From positions 1,191,165-1,255,164 of the forward strand of contig OZ242222.1 in NCBI GenBank assembly GCA_965206765.1: a DNA stretch of 64,000 nucleotides, written 5' to 3'. The notes under the pieces are model-generated. The model made no database searches. It was not told the origin of the DNA and saw only the letters and a list, made by a program, of their open reading frames with translations. This document shows positions 38,982-49,032 of the stretch, one piece after another (within the stretch, counting starts at the first letter, position 1; each line of letters begins with the position of its first letter). This stretch comes from Candidatus Multivorans sp. (GTDB taxonomy: Bacteria > Acidobacteriota > Thermoanaerobaculia > Multivoradales > Multivoraceae). The position numbers were made by a program, and so were the translations under genes.

Positions 38982-40469
<1,488 letters not shown>

Positions 40470-40596
40470 CGTTGGCGCAGGGACATGCGCCTTCTGGCAC
40501 CGAACAGCGCAGAGTCGCCTACCGATCCCTCCGTGAGGCTGCGTCATTCGGTGATTGGCCCAGTTCGCGCCCTCGCACGGCGCTCCTGAAGCGATG

Positions 40597-41439
40597 TTAT
40601 CGCCCGGGCCCGACCCTCATGTCATCAACCCGAGCCACGGGCACAATCTCCACACCGCGCCCCTTGCTATAGAGGAACAGGTACCGCGAGTTACCGCCGA
40701 TAATGCTCCAAGAGTGGTGCGTGTAGGTACGCTCCGCCGTGTGTACCACAAAGGCGCTCCCGGGATTGTCCTTCACCTCGGCAATCCGAAGGTGGGCGCC
40801 ACCAAGGAGGCTTGAGGTAAACCCTATCGTGAACACCGCCAGGAAGATCATCACTCCCGTGCCGTGGAATCGCCTACTCAGGAGTACGACCGGAACATAG
40901 GCGATGCTGATCGCAATCAGGGGCATCCACCTGAGCAGCTGAAAACCTTCGTCACCCGGGGCATAGGAGAGAGCTACAAGCGCAACGAACGCCACTATGG
41001 TCAGCCAAGAGGTGATGGACCCCTGCCAAAAGCGCTCGTGCCGGTACACCGAAACTGCTGGCGAGGCAGTCTGCCATGGCTGCGCACCAAGAAGCCACCC
41101 GAGCATGCCGACGGCGGCATGCCGGAGTTGGTCGATGCTACTCGAGACGTAGTCAGTCACGTGGAAGAAGTCACCCACGTCCACGCCGAAATGTCCATAC
41201 AGGACGTGTACATGTAGGTATCCCGACACCAAGAAGGTCGCTGATAGCCACCAACCCAACAACGACAACTCCTTGGCCGGAAAGAGAGTCCTTCCTGACG
41301 ACGAAGAGGCTAGGGCACTACGCTGTCTCCGGAACTCCTTGACCGCAAGCCTGTAGACTTGCGCCACCCACTCCTCTACTTGGAACCGCGGAGGAATCAG
41401 TGGGCGCGTCTCCGTCTTCGCCCGCGGGACCCTCGTCAC
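40597..41439 (-). CDS. Hypothetical polytopic membrane protein (5 predicted TM helices plus a C-terminal soluble domain of about 60 aa)
   Basis: 280-aa ORF in the low-GC island with no recognisable motifs. Its start may be downstream of 41439, given the overlap with the upstream ORF. Confidence 0.5.
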   Translation of the reverse strand: MTRVPRAKTETRPLIPPRFQVEEWVAQVYRLAVKEFRRQRSALASSSSGRTLFPAKELSLLGWWLSATFLVSGYLHVHVLYGHFGVDVGDFFHVTDYVSSSIDQLRHAAVGMLGWLLGAQPWQTASPAVSVYRHERFWQGSITSWLTIVAFVALVALSYAPGDEGFQLLRWMPLIAISIAYVPVVLLSRRFHGTGVMIFLAVFTIGFTSSLLGGAHLRIAEVKDNPGSAFVVHTAERTYTHHSWSIIGGNSRYLFLYSKGRGVEIVPVARVDDMRVGPGR

Positions 41440-41821
41440 TCCCGACGCGCGACGACACGAAACTTGCCATCAGGAGGTACCAGCGCCGATACCGTCCACA
41501 CTGGTCGTTCGACCGAAGCCACTCCGCCCACTCCGTCTGCCGCGCCCGCCGGGTCAGGCGAGACTCCGTCACCAAGCGACTATCGAAGAGGTCACCTATT
41601 TCCTCACGGATTTCACGATCGAGAACGTCGTCTCTTCTTTCAACACCGAGACCGAAGTGCAATCGCAGTCTCAGAGCCGCCGCGTGCTGCAGCAGTCCGC
41701 GCGCTTGGCGCGCGCGGTCCACCAGCATTCTAGTCCGGAGAGGGTCGAGCCAACGTCGCAGTAGAGCAACCGCCGAAAGTGCGTAGACCAACCTAAGCAT
41801 AGAGTCCTTCCGTAGTGTCAC
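41318..41821 (-). CDS. Hypothetical protein (167 aa), island-encoded
   Basis: ORF with atypical codon usage. It has a hydrophobic N-terminus and a charged helical middle. It overlaps the downstream gene by about 120 nt, so the boundaries are uncertain. Confidence 0.35.
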   Translation of the reverse strand: MTLRKDSMLRLVYALSAVALLRRWLDPLRTRMLVDRARQARGLLQHAAALRLRLHFGLGVERRDDVLDREIREEIGDLFDSRLVTESRLTRRARQTEWAEWLRSNDQCGRYRRWYLLMASFVSSRVGSDEGPAGEDGDAPTDSSAVPSRGVGGASLQACGQGVPETA

Positions 41822-42192
41822 CGTGGGGCATACCTCGCTTCTAGCGGGTTGCCTGCGGCATCTTAGCCGGGCTTGATCGGGACGAGCCCCACCCCGCGGC
41901 TTGCTGGTCCCGGCAAGCAGGGCGCGCGACCGGCCGACTTACAAGCCGTACCTCCCGCGGACCGAAACGGGCGGCGGCTTGGCCTACGCGACGCTCCAGC
42001 GGATCCGCCTCAACGGTAGGGGGCACGACCAGGACAACTGGCGGGGAGCCTGGGGAACTCCGCCAACCTCAGGCAGAGGTCCCTCAGTCGCCGCCGAGTG
42101 TATGCTCGGCCACGGCCCCCGCCTGAGGGAGTCCGCTAAGAGCAACCCACCTTGACCCGGCGTAACAGCGCCAACGACGACCGCGCACCGCC

Positions 42193-43257
42193 ATGATCGC
42201 ATCGGCATCCGCCGCAGAACAACAGCTTCGCCGCTACTTGGCGGCGCCCCGGTACTCACCTCTCTATGTCGCAGGGGACGCCGTAGGTGTCTTGCCCTGC
42301 TTTCCTGCTTCGTCCTTCGACTGCTGCATGACCAGCCCCCCCTATTGGCGGAAGCGGCAGTACTCGGGCGGCGGTATCGGAATGGAGAGCACCTACGAAG
42401 ACTATGTCGACAAACTTCTCGCGGTGTTGGGAGAGGTCCGTCGCGTCCTTAAGCCCACGGGCTCGCTCTGGCTTAACCTGGGAGACTCCTACAAGAACAA
42501 GGGGCTGGCCGGCATTCCATGGCGAGTGGCATTGCGGCTCACGGACGAGCAGAACTGGATCCTCCGCAACAGTGTGGTGTGGAACAAGATCAAGGGCGGG
42601 CCAGACAACACCCGCGACCGTCTCCGAAACGTCCATGAAAACGTGTTTCACTTCGTCAAGGAACCGCGCGGGTACTACTACGACGTCGACTCGATTCGCA
42701 GCACACCGAAGACGACAAAGGTCGTCAATGGCTCCGTAGTCACGGCGACCGGCGTTCGCGGCGTGCGATATCGGAGGCAGATCGAACTCTCCACCGAACT
42801 CAGTGCGTCTGAGAGAAAGTCCGCCTCTCGGGCTCTCGCGGACATGCTCAACGCCGTGCGAGGTGGCACCGTGGCCGACTTCCGCATGATTATTCGTGGC
42901 AACCAGAGGACCACCCACTCGGACTCCGCAAGCGTCTCGGGTCGCGCCAAGGAGCTTCGCGATAAGGGCTTCTACTTCCTGAAGTACCACCCGAACGGCA
43001 GCAAGCCTGCGGACGTCTGGGACATCCTTCCTGAAGACACCCAGAAACGGCGAGCACATTTCGCACCTTACCCAGAGGATCTCTGCAAACTACCGATCCT
43101 CGCGACTTCGCCACCAGACGGCACGGTCCTTGACCCGTTCTGCGGCACAGGAACGACGATGCTAGTCGCACAGCGTCTAGGGAGAAAGTCGGTCGGCATC
43201 GATCTATCGGCCGAGTATCTGGAAATGGCCGAGATGCGAACGGGCTCATTGTTGTGA
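42193..43257 (+). CDS. Site-specific DNA methyltransferase (N4-cytosine/N6-adenine, beta class, PF01555-like)
   Basis: Motif IV TSPPYW precedes motif I DPFCGTGTT. That order is characteristic of beta-class amino-MTases, and an S-P-P-Y tetrapeptide favours N4-cytosine specificity. Confidence 0.85.
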   Translation: MIASASAAEQQLRRYLAAPRYSPLYVAGDAVGVLPCFPASSFDCCMTSPPYWRKRQYSGGGIGMESTYEDYVDKLLAVLGEVRRVLKPTGSLWLNLGDSYKNKGLAGIPWRVALRLTDEQNWILRNSVVWNKIKGGPDNTRDRLRNVHENVFHFVKEPRGYYYDVDSIRSTPKTTKVVNGSVVTATGVRGVRYRRQIELSTELSASERKSASRALADMLNAVRGGTVADFRMIIRGNQRTTHSDSASVSGRAKELRDKGFYFLKYHPNGSKPADVWDILPEDTQKRRAHFAPYPEDLCKLPILATSPPDGTVLDPFCGTGTTMLVAQRLGRKSVGIDLSAEYLEMAEMRTGSLL

Positions 43258-44102
43258 GCCAGGTACTCGAGCTCTTCGGGCACGGTGCGGACGAGGCAAC
43301 CGATTGGTCTCGGGTGGTTGGGGAGCAGCTCTGCCCCTACCTAGGCTCGGCATGCATCAAGACCCGGAAGAGTCAACCCGAAGTGGCCATTGGAACCTGT
43401 TGCGTCAGCTACGGCCGCGAGGAGCGGACTCCGGTGATCTGTCCGAACCGGCTCCTGAGAGGCGGAAAGGTAATCATCGACTGCATGCGCTACTTGCGGT
43501 CCTACGGACCGGGGGACGACCTGCACGTCGTTCCAGAAGTCGGAGTGCCGGGCGGAAGTGCCGACTACTTCTTGGTGTCTGTGAGCGGGGGCTCAGTCGG
43601 GGACTTTGTCGGGATCGAGTTGCAAGCACTTGACACGACGGGAACGGTCTGGCCGGCTCGTCAGCGGTTCCTAGGGCGAGTCGGACTACGCCAACGCGCC
43701 GAAGCAGAAGCAAGCAGTCGCAGATACGGCATGAACTGGAAGATGACCGCGAAGACGACTCTTGTTCAGCTACACCACAAGGTCCGAACTTTCGAGGCCC
43801 TGGGCCGGCAACTCGTACTTGTCTTGCAGGACGAGCTTCTTGGCTACTTGCAGAGGGAGTTCACCTTCGGGCACGTAGGCCATGCTTCCGACAACGACCC
43901 GATGCAGTTCCACGCCTACAACGTGCAACGGGGCCAAGCAGGCAGCGGGTTACATCTCGCAGAACGGCTGAGCACCGACACCAAGGGAGTCCGCCGCTGC
44001 TTGGATCTTCAGACTGAGGCGCGAGTTGACACCGACCATCTGGTCGCGCAGCTGCGCAGAAAGCTAGGTCCCAGCACCCTCTTCCGCCCAAGAGGAACGT
44101 AG
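43254..44102 (+). CDS. Candidate cognate type II restriction endonuclease (Cys-rich N-terminal metal-binding region)
   Basis: GTG start at 43254 overlaps the MTase TGA, forming a GTGA that implies translational coupling. It has 5 Cys in the first 65 aa (CPYL...C...CC...C) and a possible D...E-x-Q/K catalytic core (DFVGIELQ). Confidence 0.5.
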   Translation: MSQVLELFGHGADEATDWSRVVGEQLCPYLGSACIKTRKSQPEVAIGTCCVSYGREERTPVICPNRLLRGGKVIIDCMRYLRSYGPGDDLHVVPEVGVPGGSADYFLVSVSGGSVGDFVGIELQALDTTGTVWPARQRFLGRVGLRQRAEAEASSRRYGMNWKMTAKTTLVQLHHKVRTFEALGRQLVLVLQDELLGYLQREFTFGHVGHASDNDPMQFHAYNVQRGQAGSGLHLAERLSTDTKGVRRCLDLQTEARVDTDHLVAQLRRKLGPSTLFRPRGT

Positions 44103-44109
44103 GCACGCC

Positions 44110-44290
44110 TCCAGCTTTGCCCTAACAGGTTCCTTTAGCCAAGACAGGACGCCGAGGTTGCCCTCGCGAGCCGCGGCGTGTCGCCTCCACCGCAGTTAGG
44201 AAAGCGAACGGCGCGGTAGTACGCGGGAACGTCGGAGCCGGCGGCGTCGATTCGAGCGACTTCCCAGGCCCCCTAGCCCCCCATAGCGGA
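44110..44290 (-). pseudogene. Decayed duplicate of the 3' end (last ~55 codons) of the hypothetical gene at 44962..45969
   Basis: About 75% nucleotide identity to 44975..45140. The translation retains ...YYRA.RF......REGNLGVL.WL.EP... in the same order as the intact C-terminus. Confidence 0.7.
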
Positions 44291-44954
44291 CCGGTGCCGA
44301 AGTTGGCGGCAGGTCTAGTACCTGCCATATCGACTCACGGTCGAGGAAGTCGTCGAACCGACGAACGTGCTCGACCTGGTTTCCAATCCCGATGAAGTTC
44401 CACCCCAACGCGCGACTCGCTGCCCTGTCCCATGACTGGTTTCCGAAGTAGAACCTCCGCTCGGCTGGTTTGTCAGCCATGGCTCTTCGCTCGGCGATCT
44501 GCATGATCTCGATCCGGCGAATGGCGTCTGAAGCGGATGACAAGTGCAACATGTCGGGGTCGAGGCCGATCGCTCGGAGCTTCATCGCCGCCGTCTCAGG
44601 CCAACCGCCGGTCGCAACGGCCACGCGGACTTCCGGGTGCGCAATGAGTCGGTTCACGAAGGCACGGGCGCCGGGGATCTCCGGTAGTCGGCCATCCCGA
44701 TCGCTGAGATAGTCCCGGACCAGGGCGACAAAGGCCTTCTTGACCGAGGCACGGGCAGCGAAGCGGTCGATTTCGACGGCGTGCCGATCGAGGATCTCGT
44801 CCAGGATGCCGCTGTCCGTGGCGTGCTGGTAGCTGGACCAGTCCTCATCGACCCCGATGTCGAGCACGTCTCGAACCGCCTGGGCGTACAAGACTCCGTC
44901 GAACTCGTCCGACTCGACGAGGGTTCCGTCGACGTCGAAGACGATCAGGTGCAT
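44196..44954 (-). CDS. HAD-superfamily hydrolase
   Basis: Start MHLIVFDVDGTL (HAD motif I), motif II S/T, and a K...GD/N region (WNFIGIGNQ). The C-terminal ~30 codons read through into the duplicated fragment. Confidence 0.7.
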   Translation of the reverse strand: MHLIVFDVDGTLVESDEFDGVLYAQAVRDVLDIGVDEDWSSYQHATDSGILDEILDRHAVEIDRFAARASVKKAFVALVRDYLSDRDGRLPEIPGARAFVNRLIAHPEVRVAVATGGWPETAAMKLRAIGLDPDMLHLSSASDAIRRIEIMQIAERRAMADKPAERRFYFGNQSWDRAASRALGWNFIGIGNQVEHVRRFDDFLDRESIWQVLDLPPTSAPVRYGGLGGLGSRSNRRRRLRRSRVLPRRSLS

Positions 44955-44961
44955 GGACTTC

Positions 44962-45969
44962 CTAGCTTCCACGGTTCGTAGCCAGCCACTCCTCCAGGGC
45001 CACTCTGGCCGGTTCCTCCAGCCAGGGCAGGACGCCCAGGTTGCCCTCGCGGGCGGCGGCGTCTATGTCGACTTCGTTGCGGTCGAGAAAGCGGGCGGCG
45101 CGGTAGTACAGGGGGCCCTCGGAGTCGGCGGCGTCGCCGAGTTCGATCAGGTGGCCGGCGAGTTCGCGGGTGCGGCGGAGCCTGGGCGGCAGCGGTGGCG
45201 CGGGCAGGGGTCTGGGCAGGCGAGGCTGGAGACCCGCGGCTTCGGCTGCGCATTGGAACGCCGCGGCGTCGGGCGGCGACTCGCCGCCGTGAAACAGGGC
45301 GTCGAAGGCCTCGGGCCAGGTGGATTGCAGGCGTTCGGCGAGCAGGCGCCGCTCGCGGGCGCCGAGCTGCATCGCGCGCGGTACGACGAGACGGGCGCCG
45401 GCGGCGGCGAGTCGCGCCATCGCCGGCGCCAGGAGGCCCGGCTGGTCGGTCCAGTCGGCAACGAGCGGCCAGACGACGGTCGCGCCGGCCAGCGGACGCG
45501 GTTCGAACGGGAGGCCAGGCTGCCGACGCTCCCTGAACTGGCTTCGCAGCGCGGCAGCGTGGCGGACCAGGGCGTCGAGGAGGTCGACTGCGACGACGGC
45601 GTTGGGGGGCAGGTCGGCAAGTCTTGGCGCGGCCACCTCGCCAAGGCTCGACCCGCCGACCGGGATGTTCGCTACCACTTGAATCAGGAGCGGCACTCCG
45701 GCACCGGCCGCGGCCTCGACGATGCGGGTACGGAGGGGCTCGTGATCCGCCGGTAGCGGGGGAACGTAGACGACATCGGTCACCGAGTGCACCCCTTCGG
45801 CGGCCTCGGCGCCGGCCGGCAAGGGTCCGGCCGTCGACGGCGGCAGGCCGCCGGTGGCGAGATCGCACCAGAGGTCGTCGCTGCCGGCCGCGGGCCAACG
45901 GGGAAAGCTGTGACGGATCCAGAGGTTCGCCGGTTCGGCGACGTGTTCGCGGAGGTTGAGAGCGCTCAC
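44962..45969 (-). CDS. Hypothetical protein (335 aa) with no recognised family
   Basis: Clean high-GC3 ORF, Pro/Ala/Leu-rich, with no catalytic signature that I can assign. Its 3' end is the source of the duplication at 44110..44290. Confidence 0.55.
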   Translation of the reverse strand: MSALNLREHVAEPANLWIRHSFPRWPAAGSDDLWCDLATGGLPPSTAGPLPAGAEAAEGVHSVTDVVYVPPLPADHEPLRTRIVEAAAGAGVPLLIQVVANIPVGGSSLGEVAAPRLADLPPNAVVAVDLLDALVRHAAALRSQFRERRQPGLPFEPRPLAGATVVWPLVADWTDQPGLLAPAMARLAAAGARLVVPRAMQLGARERRLLAERLQSTWPEAFDALFHGGESPPDAAAFQCAAEAAGLQPRLPRPLPAPPLPPRLRRTRELAGHLIELGDAADSEGPLYYRAARFLDRNEVDIDAAAREGNLGVLPWLEEPARVALEEWLATNRGS

Positions 45970-45974
45970 GCCCT

Positions 45975-46150
45975 GACGCTCCCGAACCAGATGCGGGCGG
46001 GACGCCCGCGTTCCCAGGGCAGAGAGGTCATGGGGCGACGTTCCCGAACCAGATGCGGGCGAGACGCCCGCGTTCCCAGGGCAGAGAGGTCACGGGGCGA
46101 CGTTCCCGACGCGGATGCGGGCAAGATGCCCGCGTTCCCAGGACGGACGG
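45975..46150. repeat. Tandem array of about three 62-bp units, each carrying a GC-rich hairpin (GCGGGC[G/A]-NGA-[C/T]GCCCGC) plus the conserved flank GTTCCCAGG
   Basis: The period is 62 bp (CGAACCAGATGCGGGC at 45983 and again at 46045). The third unit has diverged and abuts the ribE stop. Confidence 0.85.
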
Positions 46151-46151
46151 C

Positions 46152-46892
46152 TCAACGCCGGGCCGACTCGAGGGCGGCTGCGACGGCCGCCTCGACGGAC
46201 TTCTGCACGTACCGGGCGAGAACGTCGCCCTCGACGTTGACCCGGTCTCCAGGCTTCAGGTCCGAGAGGGTCGTGACCTCGAGCGTGTGCGGAATCAGGG
46301 CGACGTCGAAGGTCTCTTCGTCGAGCGCCGCGATCGTCAGGCTGACGCCGTCGATGGTCACGCTGCCCTTGAGAACGAGGCTGTTCTCGAGCTCGGCGGG
46401 GACTTCGAACGTGATGACCCGGTTGTCTCCGAGTTCCTCGACTTTCGCCACCCGGGTCGTCGTGTCGACGTGTCCCTGGACCCAGTGGCCGCCAAGCGGA
46501 TCGCCGGCCGAGAGCGGCGGCTCCAGGTTCACCTCATCGCCGTCCTGAAGCGTGCCCAGCGTCGTTCGGCTGAGGGTTTCAGGAGACAGATCGAAGGCGG
46601 ACCACGCCGGGATGGCGTCTTCCGCGCCTTTGCCCGCAACTCCGTTCGCGCCGCCCTGCTCCACCACGGTAAGGCAAACGCCGGAGACCGAGAGGCTGGC
46701 GCCCAAATCCAGCCGCGACGCAAGCCTCTCGGAGTGCCCGATCACCACGCGGGAACCCGTGGGGCGCGTCCTCGCGCCACACGCGACCCAGTCCGAGCGC
46801 CCGTCTTCGGGCGGTCGGATGGCACCGTGGCGCCCCAGGGCCTTTGGGGCCTCGACTACCCGGCCAAACTCCGTGACAATTCCGGTAAACAT
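46152..46892 (-). CDS. ribE: Riboflavin synthase alpha subunit
   Basis: MFTGIV start and a duplicated lumazine-binding barrel. Confidence 0.8.
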   Translation of the reverse strand: MFTGIVTEFGRVVEAPKALGRHGAIRPPEDGRSDWVACGARTRPTGSRVVIGHSERLASRLDLGASLSVSGVCLTVVEQGGANGVAGKGAEDAIPAWSAFDLSPETLSRTTLGTLQDGDEVNLEPPLSAGDPLGGHWVQGHVDTTTRVAKVEELGDNRVITFEVPAELENSLVLKGSVTIDGVSLTIAALDEETFDVALIPHTLEVTTLSDLKPGDRVNVEGDVLARYVQKSVEAAVAAALESARR

Positions 46893-48043
46893 CCTTGCCG
46901 GTACCCTACAAGAATCACGTCCGGGCTACGCCTCTGAACCCGCAGCCGATCGAGGCGCCAGGCGTCAGCCAGCTTCTCGGCGCCCGCGCCGCCGAGCGGC
47001 CCCGGGGCCAGAGTACCGCCGATCAGGAGGGGCGCGCAGCACACCGCGGCCCGATCCCAGACACCCGAGGACGCAAACGCCTCCAGCACCCCGGCGCCGC
47101 CCTCGACCAGCACGTTCGACACGCCGCGCCCGGCCAGGTCCGCCAGCACCGCGGGCGGCGCCACGGCCTCGATCACGACGACATCGGCGCCCGCATCACG
47201 TAGACGGTCTCGCCGCCGGGCCCATTCCACCGCGCCCTCGTCCGCGCCCTCGTCCGCGCCGCCCTCCGGCGCCGCCGTGTAGACGACAACCGGCCCCTCG
47301 ACCTCGAACATCCGCGCCCCCGGGGATAGCCGCAACCGCCGATCGAGCACCACCCGCACGATCGGTCCCTCGGCCCGGCCCAGCCGCCGGTTCAGACGCG
47401 GATCGTCGGCCAGCGCGGTGCCGCTGCCTACCGCGATCGCCTGGTGCTCCTCGCGCAGTTCGAGCGCCCAACGGCGGCCGCGCGGCGACGAGATCCACTG
47501 GCTGTCGCCGGTCGCCGTCGCGATCCGGCCGTCCAGGCTCATCGCCCACTTCAGCGTCACGGCGGGCCGCTGATGGAGGACGCGGGTCAGGAAGGGCACG
47601 TTCATCTCGACCGCCTGCTCGGCCAGAAGCCCGCTCTCGACCAGGAGGCCCGCGGCCCGCAGCCGTTCGCCACCCCCGCCGATCACCTCGGGGTTCGGAT
47701 CGCGGTGGGCGAAGACCACGCGCTCAACCCCGGATTCCAGGATCCGTCCCGCGCAGGGCGGCGTCCGACCGCGATGGTTGCAGGGCTCGAGCGTGACGTA
47801 GATCGTGCCGCCGCGGGCGCGTTCGCCGGCAGCGTCGAGCGCCATCGCCTCAGCGTGCTCGCCGCCGGCCCGGCGGTGCCAGCCGGCGCCGACGATCTCG
47901 CCGCTCTTCGTGACCACCGCCCCCACCATTGGGTTCGGCGCCGTGGTCAGGCGGCCCCGCCGCGCCAGCGCCAGCGCTCGTCCCATCGCCCGCCGATCGG
48001 CGTCGTCGAACCGCCCGCCCGCCTCAGCGCCCACGGCGCTCAC
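46856..48043 (-). CDS. ribD: Bifunctional riboflavin biosynthesis deaminase/reductase RibD
   Basis: Deaminase motif HAEAMAL ... PCNHRGRTPPC, plus the reductase domain. GTG start at 48043 in a GTGA overlap with the ftsY stop. The annotated 479-aa ORF carries a 5' read-through. Confidence 0.8.
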   Translation of the reverse strand: MSAVGAEAGGRFDDADRRAMGRALALARRGRLTTAPNPMVGAVVTKSGEIVGAGWHRRAGGEHAEAMALDAAGERARGGTIYVTLEPCNHRGRTPPCAGRILESGVERVVFAHRDPNPEVIGGGGERLRAAGLLVESGLLAEQAVEMNVPFLTRVLHQRPAVTLKWAMSLDGRIATATGDSQWISSPRGRRWALELREEHQAIAVGSGTALADDPRLNRRLGRAEGPIVRVVLDRRLRLSPGARMFEVEGPVVVYTAAPEGGADEGADEGAVEWARRRDRLRDAGADVVVIEAVAPPAVLADLAGRGVSNVLVEGGAGVLEAFASSGVWDRAAVCCAPLLIGGTLAPGPLGGAGAEKLADAWRLDRLRVQRRSPDVILVGYRQGCLPELSRSLAG

Positions 48044-49032
48044 CCGAACAGAGCGGCCGCAAAGGACCGCGGCTTGTAGTCGACGATGTCCTCCACCCCC
48101 TCGCCCACACCCAGGTAGGCGACCGGCAGGCGCAGATCGCGGGCGATCGCCACCGCCATGCCGCCTTTGGCCGTACCGTCGAGCTTGGCCAGGAACACGG
48201 CGTCGATCGGGACCGTCGCCCCGAACTCGCGCGCCTGCACCAGCGCGTTGTGACCGTTGCCGGCATCGACAACCAGGAGGGTGAAGAGGTTCCACTCGTC
48301 GCCGGCAGCGCGCCGCGTGACACGGTGAACCTTCGACAACTCGTCCATCAGTTCACCGCGAGTGTGGAGGCGGCCCGCCGTATCGACGATCAGGTGATCG
48401 ATGCCGCGGGCGCCGGCTGCCTGGACGGCGTCGAAGACGAGCGCCGCCGGGTCGCCGCCCGACCGGCGGCGGACGACCTCGATCCCCAGCCGCTCGCCCC
48501 AGACCTCGAGCTGCTCCGCGGCCGCGGCACGAAAGGTGTCGCCCGCCGCGAAGAGGACCTTCTCGCCCCGGGCCAGGGACGCCCGCGCCAACTTGGCGGC
48601 GGAGGTCGTCTTGCCCGAACCGTTGACGCCGACCATCAGGGTGATGCGCGGGGTCGCCGGCAGCGCGGCGGGCGGAGCGTCGAGCAGCAGCACCGCCACT
48701 TCGTCGACGAGCAGTTGCCGCAAGGCGAACTCGTCGCCGGCGGCGATCGGCCCCGAATCTCCCGCCTGACGCAACCGCTCCACGAGCTCGAGCGAGGTCT
48801 CGACCCCCAGGTCGGCCTCGATCAGCGTCTCCTCGAGCCGTTCCAGCACATCCTCATCGATCCGCGCCGCGCCTCCAAGCGCGGTGCTGATCCGGCCGAC
48901 CAGTCCCGTCCGGGTACGGCCGAGGCCGCGTCGCAGCCGGTTCCACAGGCCGCCCCTTCCGGATTCCAGCGATTCGCGCGCTTCGCCTTCCGCCGCCGGC
49001 GCGGCCGTGCCGCCGCCGATTCCCGCGCTCAC
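48040..49032 (-). CDS. ftsY: Signal recognition particle receptor FtsY
   Basis: NG domain with GVNGSGKTTS, DTAGR, and the GxGEG-like motif. Confidence 0.9.
   Translation of the reverse strand: MSAGIGGGTAAPAAEGEARESLESGRGGLWNRLRRGLGRTRTGLVGRISTALGGAARIDEDVLERLEETLIEADLGVETSLELVERLRQAGDSGPIAAGDEFALRQLLVDEVAVLLLDAPPAALPATPRITLMVGVNGSGKTTSAAKLARASLARGEKVLFAAGDTFRAAAAEQLEVWGERLGIEVVRRRSGGDPAALVFDAVQAAGARGIDHLIVDTAGRLHTRGELMDELSKVHRVTRRAAGDEWNLFTLLVVDAGNGHNALVQAREFGATVPIDAVFLAKLDGTAKGGMAVAIARDLRLPVAYLGVGEGVEDIVDYKPRSFAAALFG

Follow-up and report, generated by a model that had tools for sequence, protein, structure and literature searches.

The window analysed here is a 64,000-nt stretch of DNA from Candidatus Multivorans sp. 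(contig OZ242222.1). On its minus strand, ribD (46856-48295) and ribE (46152-46892), recognized by Pfam Lum_binding, RibD_C and dCMP_cyt_deam_1 matches across 46152..48295, form the operon context upstream of gene X (44962..45969, minus strand), an ORF which encodes a conserved hypothetical protein of 335 aa and which is the parent of the duplicated segment described below. X was always found downstream of ribE in the relatives compared, and its homologues (n = 167) all come from Acidobacteriota (Thermoanaerobaculia, Ca. Multivorans). The X protein had no Pfam, NCBIfam or PDB sequence match; its AlphaFold model reached a pLDDT of 78.5 and gave only weak, TIM-barrel-like Foldseek matches (E >= 2.6e-3, TM <= 0.27). 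Next to X on the same strand lies an ORF of 258 aa for a HAD-superfamily hydrolase (44196..44972; Pfam PF00702, PF12710 and PF13419), referred to here as HAD. It is followed by psi-X, a truncated and frameshifted pseudogene relic of X codons ~275-329 (44101..44262, minus strand), in which the secure core spans 44101-44249 and a weak extension reaches ~44262.

On the plus strand, a predicted restriction-modification (R-M) cassette faces these genes. It consists of a predicted N4/N6 DNA methyltransferase (MTase; 42193..43257; PF01555, E = 1.8e-48; PADLOC MTase_II) and a predicted NotI-family type II restriction endonuclease (REase; 43254..44102; ORF, Pfam and PADLOC REase_II), whose start overlaps the MTase gene by 4 nt and whose stop codon adjoins psi-X. 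The Pfam NotI match of the REase scored 18.5 bits, under the curated 22-bit cut-off, and NCBIfam gave no match; many of its more than 3000 homologues, including those at 52-57% identity, carry PF12183 or the NotI family name. The module common to several genomes starts 2-17 nt upstream of the MTase start codon. The rest of the low-GC island (40470..42175) holds two unannotatable minus-strand ORFs (40597-41439 and 41318-41821) with no match in Pfam, NCBIfam or PADLOC and no blastn match in the fetched loci. Among the ORFs in 40470-44972, Pfam, NCBIfam and PADLOC identified only HAD, MTase and REase, with no integrase, recombinase or transposase, and no tRNA was found.

The conserved left flank stops at the stop codon of a lysS-like class II aminoacyl-tRNA synthetase gene (38982..40469, plus strand), which is convergent with HAD. 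The conserved right flank stops at a native spacer of about 14 nt downstream of HAD (44259..44272), which is still common to L004 according to blastn and sequence comparison. Synteny with relatives accordingly breaks at 40469 and ~44259: window 55332-44259 aligned to L004 661-11712 at 88.9% by blastn, and synteny resumes at 40468-40491 in eight genomes (L001, L004, L005, L007, L011, L012, L013 and L025). The GC content of the island (40470-44262) is 59-64%, compared with 70-75% in the flanks, and in various relatives the convergent lysS/HAD spacer holds R-M, OLD-like, DrmA-like, toxin-antitoxin-like or IS genes. With conserved flanking core genes, cargo that varies across relatives and an anomalous composition, as genomic-island hotspots have, this spacer is, as judged from its sequence, a hotspot for defence islands in an uncultured lineage of Acidobacteriota.

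Two copies of the X 3' end

A repeat search within the window detected direct repeats between 44101-44179 and 44984-45062 (77% identity) and between 44179-44249 and 45066-45136 (76% identity), the two blocks being displaced by a single 4-nt indel. Both copies have the same orientation, with a spacing of 883-887 nt. The genuine copy (44984..45136, minus strand) lies in X itself, where repeat search and alignments place it at codons ~278-329, the native C-terminal helices. In MAFFT and global alignments of the outer and genuine copies, 116 of 146 ungapped columns were identical; overall, the copies are about 77% identical. The local alignment score of the two copies was 73, compared with 10.4 +/- 1.7 and a maximum of 19 for the 1000 dinucleotide-preserving shuffles used as the significance baseline (z = 38). 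In addition, the minus-strand codon order is kept in the outer copy, which reads ..AYYRAVRF.., then a frameshift, then ..AAAREGNLGVLSWLKEPVRAKLEACL.., where gene X has ..LYYRAARFLDRNEVDIDAAAREGNLGVLPWLEEPARVALEEWL... An assembly artefact was rejected, since the copies are 23% diverged and the arrangement recurs in at least five independent assemblies.

The original prediction, that the last ~170 nt of X reappear at 44110..44290 with about 75% identity, is therefore right about the repeat itself and needs correction in its extent. The copy occupies 44101-44249, perhaps to ~44262; the detectable part is ~150-165 nt long, corresponds to X codons ~275/278-329, and lacks the last ~6 codons and the stop codon of X. 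Its far end is the REase stop codon (44100-44102), so the R-M island indeed abuts the outer copy, as had been stated. The longest identical run between psi-X and X is 14 nt, and the GC content of psi-X is 67%, compared with 72% in the parent segment. As expected of a pseudogene fragment, psi-X combines significant homology and conserved codon order with truncation and a frame disrupted by the 4-nt deletion, and we propose that 44101-44262 be annotated as such a fragment of X. No second repeat pair was found at the outer borders of the island (39800-45300 searched), and there was no tRNA, Rfam family, sigma-70-like promoter or intrinsic terminator in or around the relic.

The HAD gene between the copies

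HAD is the sole gene between the repeats, and the observation that the two copies bracket it holds, with the refinement that the present HAD ORF extends into the outer copy by 26 codons. HAD orthologues have 227-232 aa and end in ..VRDGGS* or ..HDGGT*, whereas the window HAD ends in ..VRYGGLGGLGSRSNRRRRLRRSRVLPRRSLS*. In the alignment with L042-L044, the stop region reads CCCTAG--CCCCCC in the window and CCCTAGCTCCCCCC in these relatives, which places the ancestral stop codon, a TAG that is no longer in frame, and a deletion of 2 nt, the AG of the final AGC codon, at 44273..44277, minus strand. This deletion took the stop out of frame, so that HAD reads on into psi-X. According to the orthologue comparison, the ancestral part of the gene is 44273-44972 and the 26 read-through codons, in a different frame, occupy 44196-44272 (both minus strand); these last codons should be annotated as frameshift read-through and not as real protein sequence.

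The bracketing had suggested another view of HAD, as a small cassette, mobile or integrative, which entered X at its 3' end, supplied a new terminus there and can be excised between the copies. Two further properties of HAD fit such a cassette: it is patchy, since roughly half of the relatives lack it or have it in truncated form, and its GC content (62-65%) is below that of X. The comparison with relatives gave a different picture. Of 39 species-level Ca. Multivorans/Thermoanaerobaculia genomes, 15 keep the order ribD-ribE-X-HAD, even where X identity has fallen to 61%, and in these HAD lies directly downstream of X, with stop and start overlapping or nearly so. If HAD had been inserted, relatives with a single X 3' end were expected to lack it; instead, 14 of the 15 X-HAD genomes, all species-level relatives, keep HAD without any detectable second X fragment. 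L012 and L013 have empty sites, where only 9-45 nt separate HAD from the convergent lysS-like gene. Other islands inserted at the hotspot, or deletions there, account for the truncated HAD stubs in L001, L002, L051 and L052. The conserved gene order shows HAD to be an old, ancestral resident of the locus.

The 3' end of X also gives no sign of having been replaced. In the closest relatives, the X 3' ends match it at 91-95% identity, a level similar to the rest of X, and it is therefore native. Excision of HAD between the copies is unlikely, because at 77% identity they share identical runs of at most 14 nt, and no X/psi-X recombinant was seen in the loci examined. Furthermore, the same X-HAD-psiX-REase order is present in L042-L044, L047 and L050, a finding in relatives that the original prediction itself had set against an insertion, and in L045/L046, where a PhyH gene disrupts HAD, the relic still adjoins REase. 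Because X-HAD is conserved without the repeat, relatives share the arrangement, no recombinase lies between the repeats, the X end is native, the extra copy tracks the R-M genes and the repeat is a poor excision substrate, the reading of HAD as an inserted cassette fails, and we regard it as extremely unlikely; HAD should not be handled as a mobile cassette. What stands of the proposed footprint is an old recombination or duplication at the X 3' end, of which tandem duplication is a viable form.

Association of psi-X with the R-M cassette

At the rib-lysS site, psi-X adjoins the REase stop codon in nine out of nine further loci that have both cassette and relic, giving 10 loci with the window, and the REase-stop|psi-X junction is identical across all loci with the relic. 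Window 43900-44398 aligned contiguously to L042, L043 and L044 at 90% and to L047 at 74%. The spacers of L047 and L050 show similarity to the 3' end of X, with z = 23 in the case of L047. Those of L025 and L045 match the L047 spacer (z = 12-14); their homology to X is a chain of alignments with marginal direct scores (z = 2.2-4.5, that of the L045 spacer with its own X being 4.5). Where the cassette occurs in another context, beside an SNF-type transporter (L048 and L063), the relic is absent. In L049, the cassette lies beside an intact X with an intact tail and without HAD, separated by an unrelated 192-nt spacer; this REase-X spacer was considered as a decayed psi-X and rejected, because it had no similarity to anything tested. 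Metagenome contigs searched with a 20-nt degenerate pattern of the REase 3' end yielded 10 loci, none of them encoding REase, MTase, X or HAD. On these comparisons, psi-X is shown to be linked, in the loci sampled, to the R-M cassette rather than to HAD.

All psi-X copies share bases that no X gene has (..ATCGAC.. for ..GGCGAC.., and GCTCCG for ACTCCG), and from these common derived bases a single origin of the copies is likely. The relic may thus serve as a fossil tag, by which all NotI-like R-M cassettes at the Ca. Multivorans rib-lysS locus would trace to one insertion that was later inherited, lost or swapped by recombination, and it points to the convergent spacer between lysS and HAD as a hotspot for defence islands. 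Psi-X is equidistant from all near-clade X genes (70-72% over 168 columns) and so favours no particular donor lineage or direction.

After this origin, psi-X decayed. The 4-nt deletion is common to the window and L042-L044, and indels differ among the psi-X lineages. Compared with X, the substitutions in psi-X show an AT bias (17 S>W vs 8 W>S), and psi-X identity drops with cassette divergence, from 90% at a REase pS of 0.28 to 64% at 0.40 and ~50% at 0.52, until the relic is nearly unrecognizable in L025, L045 and L050. This pattern is consistent with neutrality, that is, with a presumably dead relic decaying without function. Maintenance for a function could be argued from the same position in 10 loci, window included, and from the divergence between window and L042, which over 149 sites with a mosaic background is 10% for psi-X, under the pS of 0.17-0.32 of the neighbouring genes. 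As candidate functions, the relic could form a 3' UTR or buffer the converging transcription of REase and HAD, regulate X as an antisense element, or serve as a portable homology arm by which the cassette is targeted to the rib-lysS locus. However, the near loss of the relic in three loci, the lineage-specific indels, and the lack of a terminator-like or promoter-like site and of an Rfam match argue against these, and within the local high-identity block shared by window and L042, psi-X (89-91%) diverges faster than the adjacent REase 3' end (94-97%). We attribute the low divergence from L042 to mosaic recombination, with weak constraint as the alternative, and consider a retained function quite improbable.

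The homology arm has one version with a consequence of its own. The ~160-nt X fragment might act as a hitch-hiking arm which, together with lysS-side homology, guides the integrase-less R-M cassette, in other Ca. Multivorans genomes, to their rib-lysS locus by homologous recombination, sometimes deleting HAD; if this were true, the R-M system would gain locus-specific mobility without any recombinase. The HAD-deleting recombinants expected of a homology arm were not seen, and we judge this version to be very improbable.

Possible routes of origin

Considering the linkage and anatomy together, psi-X is probably a recombination scar on the 3' flank of the R-M cassette and not a boundary of a mobile HAD cassette. 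We therefore conclude that the scar goes back to a single old event that placed the R-M cassette in the hotspot, either a recombination, illegitimate or facilitated by homology, or a duplication with a subsequent deletion. The ancestral layout is ribD-ribE-X-HAD convergent with the lysS-like gene, 9-45 nt apart, and in this old event an MTase-REase module joined to about 160 nt of the X 3' end would have been set about 15 nt past the HAD stop. As the most likely route, we infer that the R-M module first came to adjoin X directly, at its variable C-terminal tail, in a genome without HAD, and that the module and the attached X piece then moved into a HAD-bearing genome. This move would have combined homologous crossing-over in the flank on the lysS side with an illegitimate joint immediately past HAD, through homology-facilitated illegitimate recombination or flank carry-over. 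Afterwards, psi-X would have been inherited along with the cassette, or exchanged with it via flank-mediated homologous recombination, decaying without function, and in the window genome the 2-nt deletion would have led to the translation of HAD into psi-X in the wrong frame. The donor state is plausible: the L049 cassette lies beside an intact X without HAD, and in L005 a foreign island is fused to X near codon 329-331, which shows that the tail of X can be replaced. None of the genomes examined had the donor junction that this route postulates, with X codon ~329 joined straight to the REase stop.

Illegitimate insertion of foreign DNA often comes with local duplication or deletion, and a tandem duplication could also have produced the scar. 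The duplicated segment would have started at X codon ~275, included HAD and ended ~15 nt beyond it, giving X-HAD-X'-HAD', after which the second copy was replaced by the R-M island from the X' tail onward, or deleted, leaving a ~160-nt X' stub. The inner junction, where ~15 nt past the HAD stop meets X codon ~275, is what a duplication joint would look like, and the shared orientation of the copies and their spacing of 883-887 nt agree with it. However, two events with coincident end points are required, neither an HAD' remnant nor a full tandem copy occurs in any locus examined, and psi-X was never found without the R-M cassette. We thus hold this explanation to be possible and rather unlikely.

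R-M-linked genome rearrangements have been described, including "insertion with long target duplication" (Furuta et al. 2010, PMC2853133), first reported in H. pylori by Nobusato et al. 2000 (ref. 37 in PMC2853133). In that class, R and M homologues lie inside direct repeats, the duplication exceeds 30 bp, the insert is shorter than 20 kb, no other mobility genes are present, and relatives have a single target copy (PMC2853133). The present locus resembles this class in that a type II R-M pair with neither integrase nor transposase interrupts conserved surroundings, that its GC content is below that of the genome, that relatives have an empty site, and that a long direct duplication of host sequence (>30 bp) lies at one edge, overlapping a gene 3' end. 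The repeat of ~150 nt, the 3.8-kb island, the lack of a transposase or integrase and the single X 3' end in empty-site relatives all agree with it. In contrast to that class, where near-identical repeats flank R and M, the copies here are old (77% identical), and REase and MTase (42193-44102) lie outside the repeats (44101-44249 and 44984-45136), which enclose the resident HAD.

The locus can be compared with two further systems. First, as with islands and prophages in the 3' ends of tRNA or protein genes (attL/attR), a gene 3' end is directly duplicated beside acquired DNA. Unlike in att-type elements, there is no integrase or recombinase in 40470-44972, the copy at the intact gene is native, and the repeat is ~150 nt and degenerate instead of a short conserved core. 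The repeats enclose only HAD (44273-44972), with the DNA of foreign composition (40470-44100) outside, and the enclosed gene is present in relatives without the repeat, namely in the 14 X-HAD genomes and against the lysS-like gene in L012/L013. Second, homology-facilitated illegitimate recombination upon uptake of foreign DNA has been described for Acinetobacter and Streptococcus pneumoniae. A one-sided lysS-side anchor and an illegitimate joint would similarly yield the order HAD-psiX-REase-MTase-...-lysS; unlike in the described cases, the process here is hypothetical, the genomes examined contained no donor configuration, and any microhomology at the joint is no longer readable.

The finding is largely ordinary and does not imply a new mechanism, and its value lies chiefly in annotation and genome history. 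Compared with known defence-island hotspots between core genes, the lysS/HAD spacer shows no essential difference and appears to be a new example.

Gene X, its partial copy and the HAD gene

The hypothetical ORF here called gene X (44962-45969, minus strand) encodes 335 aa and matches nothing in Pfam or NCBIfam and no PDB sequence. It lies on the same strand as ribD (46856-48295) and ribE (46152-46892) immediately upstream and a HAD gene (44196-44972) downstream, which matches three HAD-superfamily Pfam models. The restriction-modification (R-M) cassette on the plus strand consists of an N6_N4 DNA methyltransferase gene (MTase, 42193-43257; E = 1.8e-48) and a restriction endonuclease gene (REase, 43254-44102), whose Pfam NotI match is sub-threshold and whose homologues number in the thousands, many of them annotated as NotI family. 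From ~40400 to ~44900, GC content is 59-64%, down from 70-75%.

As the original prediction stated, the 3' end of X is present as a direct repeat. The repeat search returned two adjoining blocks with a register shift of 4 nt, 44101-44179 against 44984-45062 (77%) and 44179-44249 against 45066-45136 (76%), and 116 of 146 ungapped columns were identical in the global alignment. Chance matching between GC-rich sequences is ruled out by the local score, which was 73 compared with 10.4 +/- 1.7 for 1000 shuffled sequences with dinucleotides preserved (z = 38), and by preserved codon order: translated from the minus strand, the outer copy gives ..AYYRAVRF.., a 4-nt deletion and then ..AAAREGNLGVLSWLKEPVRAKLEACL.., where X has ..LYYRAARFLDRNEVDIDAAAREGNLGVLPWLEEPARVALEEWL.. 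at the corresponding stretch. Judged from the alignment, the shuffle score and the reading of both copies, the outer copy (psi-X) is truly homologous to X. It covers X codons ~278-329, without the last six codons and stop of X; a weaker match extends it to ~44262, so that it may start at X codon ~275. The predicted contact with the R-M island was also found, as psi-X begins right at the REase stop codon (44100-44102).

HAD orthologues are 227-232 aa long and end in ..VRDGGS* or ..HDGGT*, and the protein in the window ends in ..VRYGGLGGLGSRSNRRRRLRRSRVLPRRSLS*. A 2-nt deletion lies beside the ancestral TAG at 44273-44275 (CCCTAG--CCCCCC vs CCCTAGCTCCCCCC in the alignment), and therefore the HAD ORF continues for 26 codons within psi-X, in a frame other than that of X, and stops at 44196. 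This deletion could be either real or an assembly error. HAD without this extension (44273-44972, minus strand) is stop/start-coupled to X in the ribD-ribE-X-HAD cluster.

HAD as an old resident beside a hotspot

Homologues of X were detectable 167 times, all in Acidobacteriota (Thermoanaerobaculia, 'Ca. Multivorans'). One genome per species was scanned, which gave 39 loci, and further loci were added through context look-ups. In every locus ribE is followed by X, and X in turn is followed immediately by a full-length HAD orthologue in 15 of the 39 species-level genomes, at X identities down to 61%. Among these 15, HAD identity roughly parallels X identity, the pattern expected of a co-inherited operon partner, and a second X-like segment was found in only one of them (L025). 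In about half of the relatives, HAD is truncated or lost. In other bacteria, HAD enzymes carry out the 5-amino-6-(5-phospho-D-ribitylamino)uracil phosphatase step of riboflavin synthesis, and from its gene position this HAD could be such a phosphatase. X is well conserved and possibly has an uncharacterised riboflavin-related function; its AlphaFold model (pLDDT 78.5) has a beta/alpha core with a C-terminal helical bundle and gave only weak, TIM-barrel-like matches with Foldseek.

In whole-locus blastn, conservation of the right flank, ribD-ribE-X-HAD, reached 44259 (88.9% over 11 kb with the related locus L004) and that of the left flank 40468-40491, at the stop of a lysS-like class II aaRS gene (38982-40469). 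In two relatives with an 'empty site', the HAD stop lies ~45 nt (L012) or ~9 nt (L013) from the lysS-like stop. These synteny breaks and empty sites show that the convergent spacer between HAD and lysS is occupied in the window by a 3.8-kb island (40470-~44262), whose HAD-proximal end is psi-X. At the same site, other relatives carry an OLD-like ATPase (L042), a DrmA-like HATPase (L001), IS elements (L002, L051), a DUF222 protein (L052) or a HigA-like protein with another gene (L005), and in many loci with other cargo HAD is a stub of 20-128 aa or gone. This convergent spacer is a hotspot for defence or mobile genes; L004 is also counted among the loci with such genes there.

The X-HAD synteny, the empty sites and the varied cargo beside HAD stubs thus identify HAD as an old resident often damaged by hotspot traffic, not an insertion. 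The proposed mobile HAD cassette is contradicted by the 14 species-level genomes that have X-HAD with no second X segment and by the empty sites. Excision of HAD through the two copies was also considered, and the case for it is weak, as they share no identical run longer than 14 nt and X/psi-X recombinants were not observed. What stands of the earlier interpretation is a recombination or duplication footprint beside an R-M island; the mobile cassette, the replacement terminus and a credible excision substrate do not.

Association of psi-X with the R-M cassette and its decay

The MTase-REase module occupies this site in L025, L042-L047 and L050 (REase 79-90% aa identity), and in all of them the ~170-200-nt spacer between the REase and HAD stops is alignable with psi-X of the window. 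In L042-L044, psi-X is 90% identical to the window's and has the 4-nt deletion in common. The L047 spacer matches the X 3' end at z = 23, and that of L050 is similar to it. The spacers of L025 and L045/L046 are nearly worn out; they match the L047 spacer at z = 12-14, and that of L045 matches its own X at z = 4.5. In L045/L046 a PhyH gene breaks HAD, and the relic nonetheless abuts REase. No relic was found in L048 and L063, where the cassette adjoins an SNF-type transporter, or in L049, where 192 nt separate the cassette from an intact X and HAD is absent. L048 and L063 form a second insertion context of the cassette (REase identity 75-77%), with a CcdA/CcdB pair upstream of it in L048. The shared module extends from 2-17 nt upstream of the MTase start codon through psi-X, which forms its other end. 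The identical REase-stop junction in all psi-X copies, together with bases common to all of them and found in no X gene (ATCGAC for GGCGAC, GCTCCG for ACTCCG), points to a single origin.

With X as the reference, psi-X shows an AT-biased set of substitutions (17 S>W, 8 W>S, 5 S>S), its GC content is 67% compared with 72% in the parent segment, and indels differ between lineages. Identity to the window copy drops as the cassette diverges, from 90% in L042 (REase pS 0.28) to 64% in L047 (0.40) and ~50% in L045 (0.52). The comparison with L042 is mosaic (70-100% in 100-nt windows), and inside the local block of high identity psi-X (89-91%) has diverged further than the REase 3' end beside it (94-97%). 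Searches of the psi-X region for promoter- or terminator-like sites, tRNAs and Rfam families found none. We conclude that psi-X is probably non-functional, with the caveat that 149 sites on a mosaic background leave room for weak constraint. Within the cassettes of the window and L042, the same 70%-100% swings at 42200-43700 suggest intragenic recombination among cassette alleles.

Possible origin and known systems

Any origin must explain two junctions, (a) from ~15 nt past the HAD stop to X codon ~275 and (b) from X codon ~329 to the REase stop. In our preferred route, the cassette would formerly have stood against the variable X tail in a HAD-less genome, and a fragment [X 3' stub-REase-MTase-...-lysS side] would then have integrated into a HAD-bearing genome, through crossing-over in homologous sequence at the lysS end and illegitimate joining immediately past HAD. 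L049 has the cassette beside X with no HAD. Invariant residues in X end at W328 and L329, and in L005 the join between X and a foreign island falls at codon ~329-331, so the tail of X is replaceable. The main rival has [X codon 275...HAD...+15 nt] duplicated in tandem and the second copy then overwritten from the X' tail onward; its intermediate is absent from the loci examined, as is that of the preferred route.

Furuta et al. (2010, PMC2853133) describe R-M systems that are flanked by long direct target duplications, often overlapping gene 3' ends, and that appear as indels or substitutions between conserved flanking sequences, with no other mobility genes present. Our locus shares these general features. 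However, R and M lie between the repeats in that class and outside them here, and because of this the locus lacks the defining feature of the class. The most fitting description is a gene relic left as the scar of an R-M-linked rearrangement at a defence-island hotspot, which makes the locus a new example of phenomena already known.

The remainder of the island is occupied by two overlapping low-GC minus-strand ORFs (40597-41439, 280 aa, apparently membrane-like; 41318-41821, 167 aa). They have no Pfam, NCBIfam or PADLOC match and no counterpart in any fetched locus, and may not be genuine genes. The rib cluster is split in the closest complete relative (L001/L003, 4701-9284), where an IS with a DDE_Tnp_1 transposase, together with small ORFs, has inserted between ribD and ribE. 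The ribE-X spacer of the window is filled by a 62-nt tandem unit (45975-46142, x2.7, 92% matches) that slightly overlaps the X start and has no Rfam match, and each unit contains the hairpin GCGGGCGrGACGCCCGC. This spacer is 182 nt long, compared with 41-91 nt in L001 and L002, so the copy number of the unit differs among relatives.
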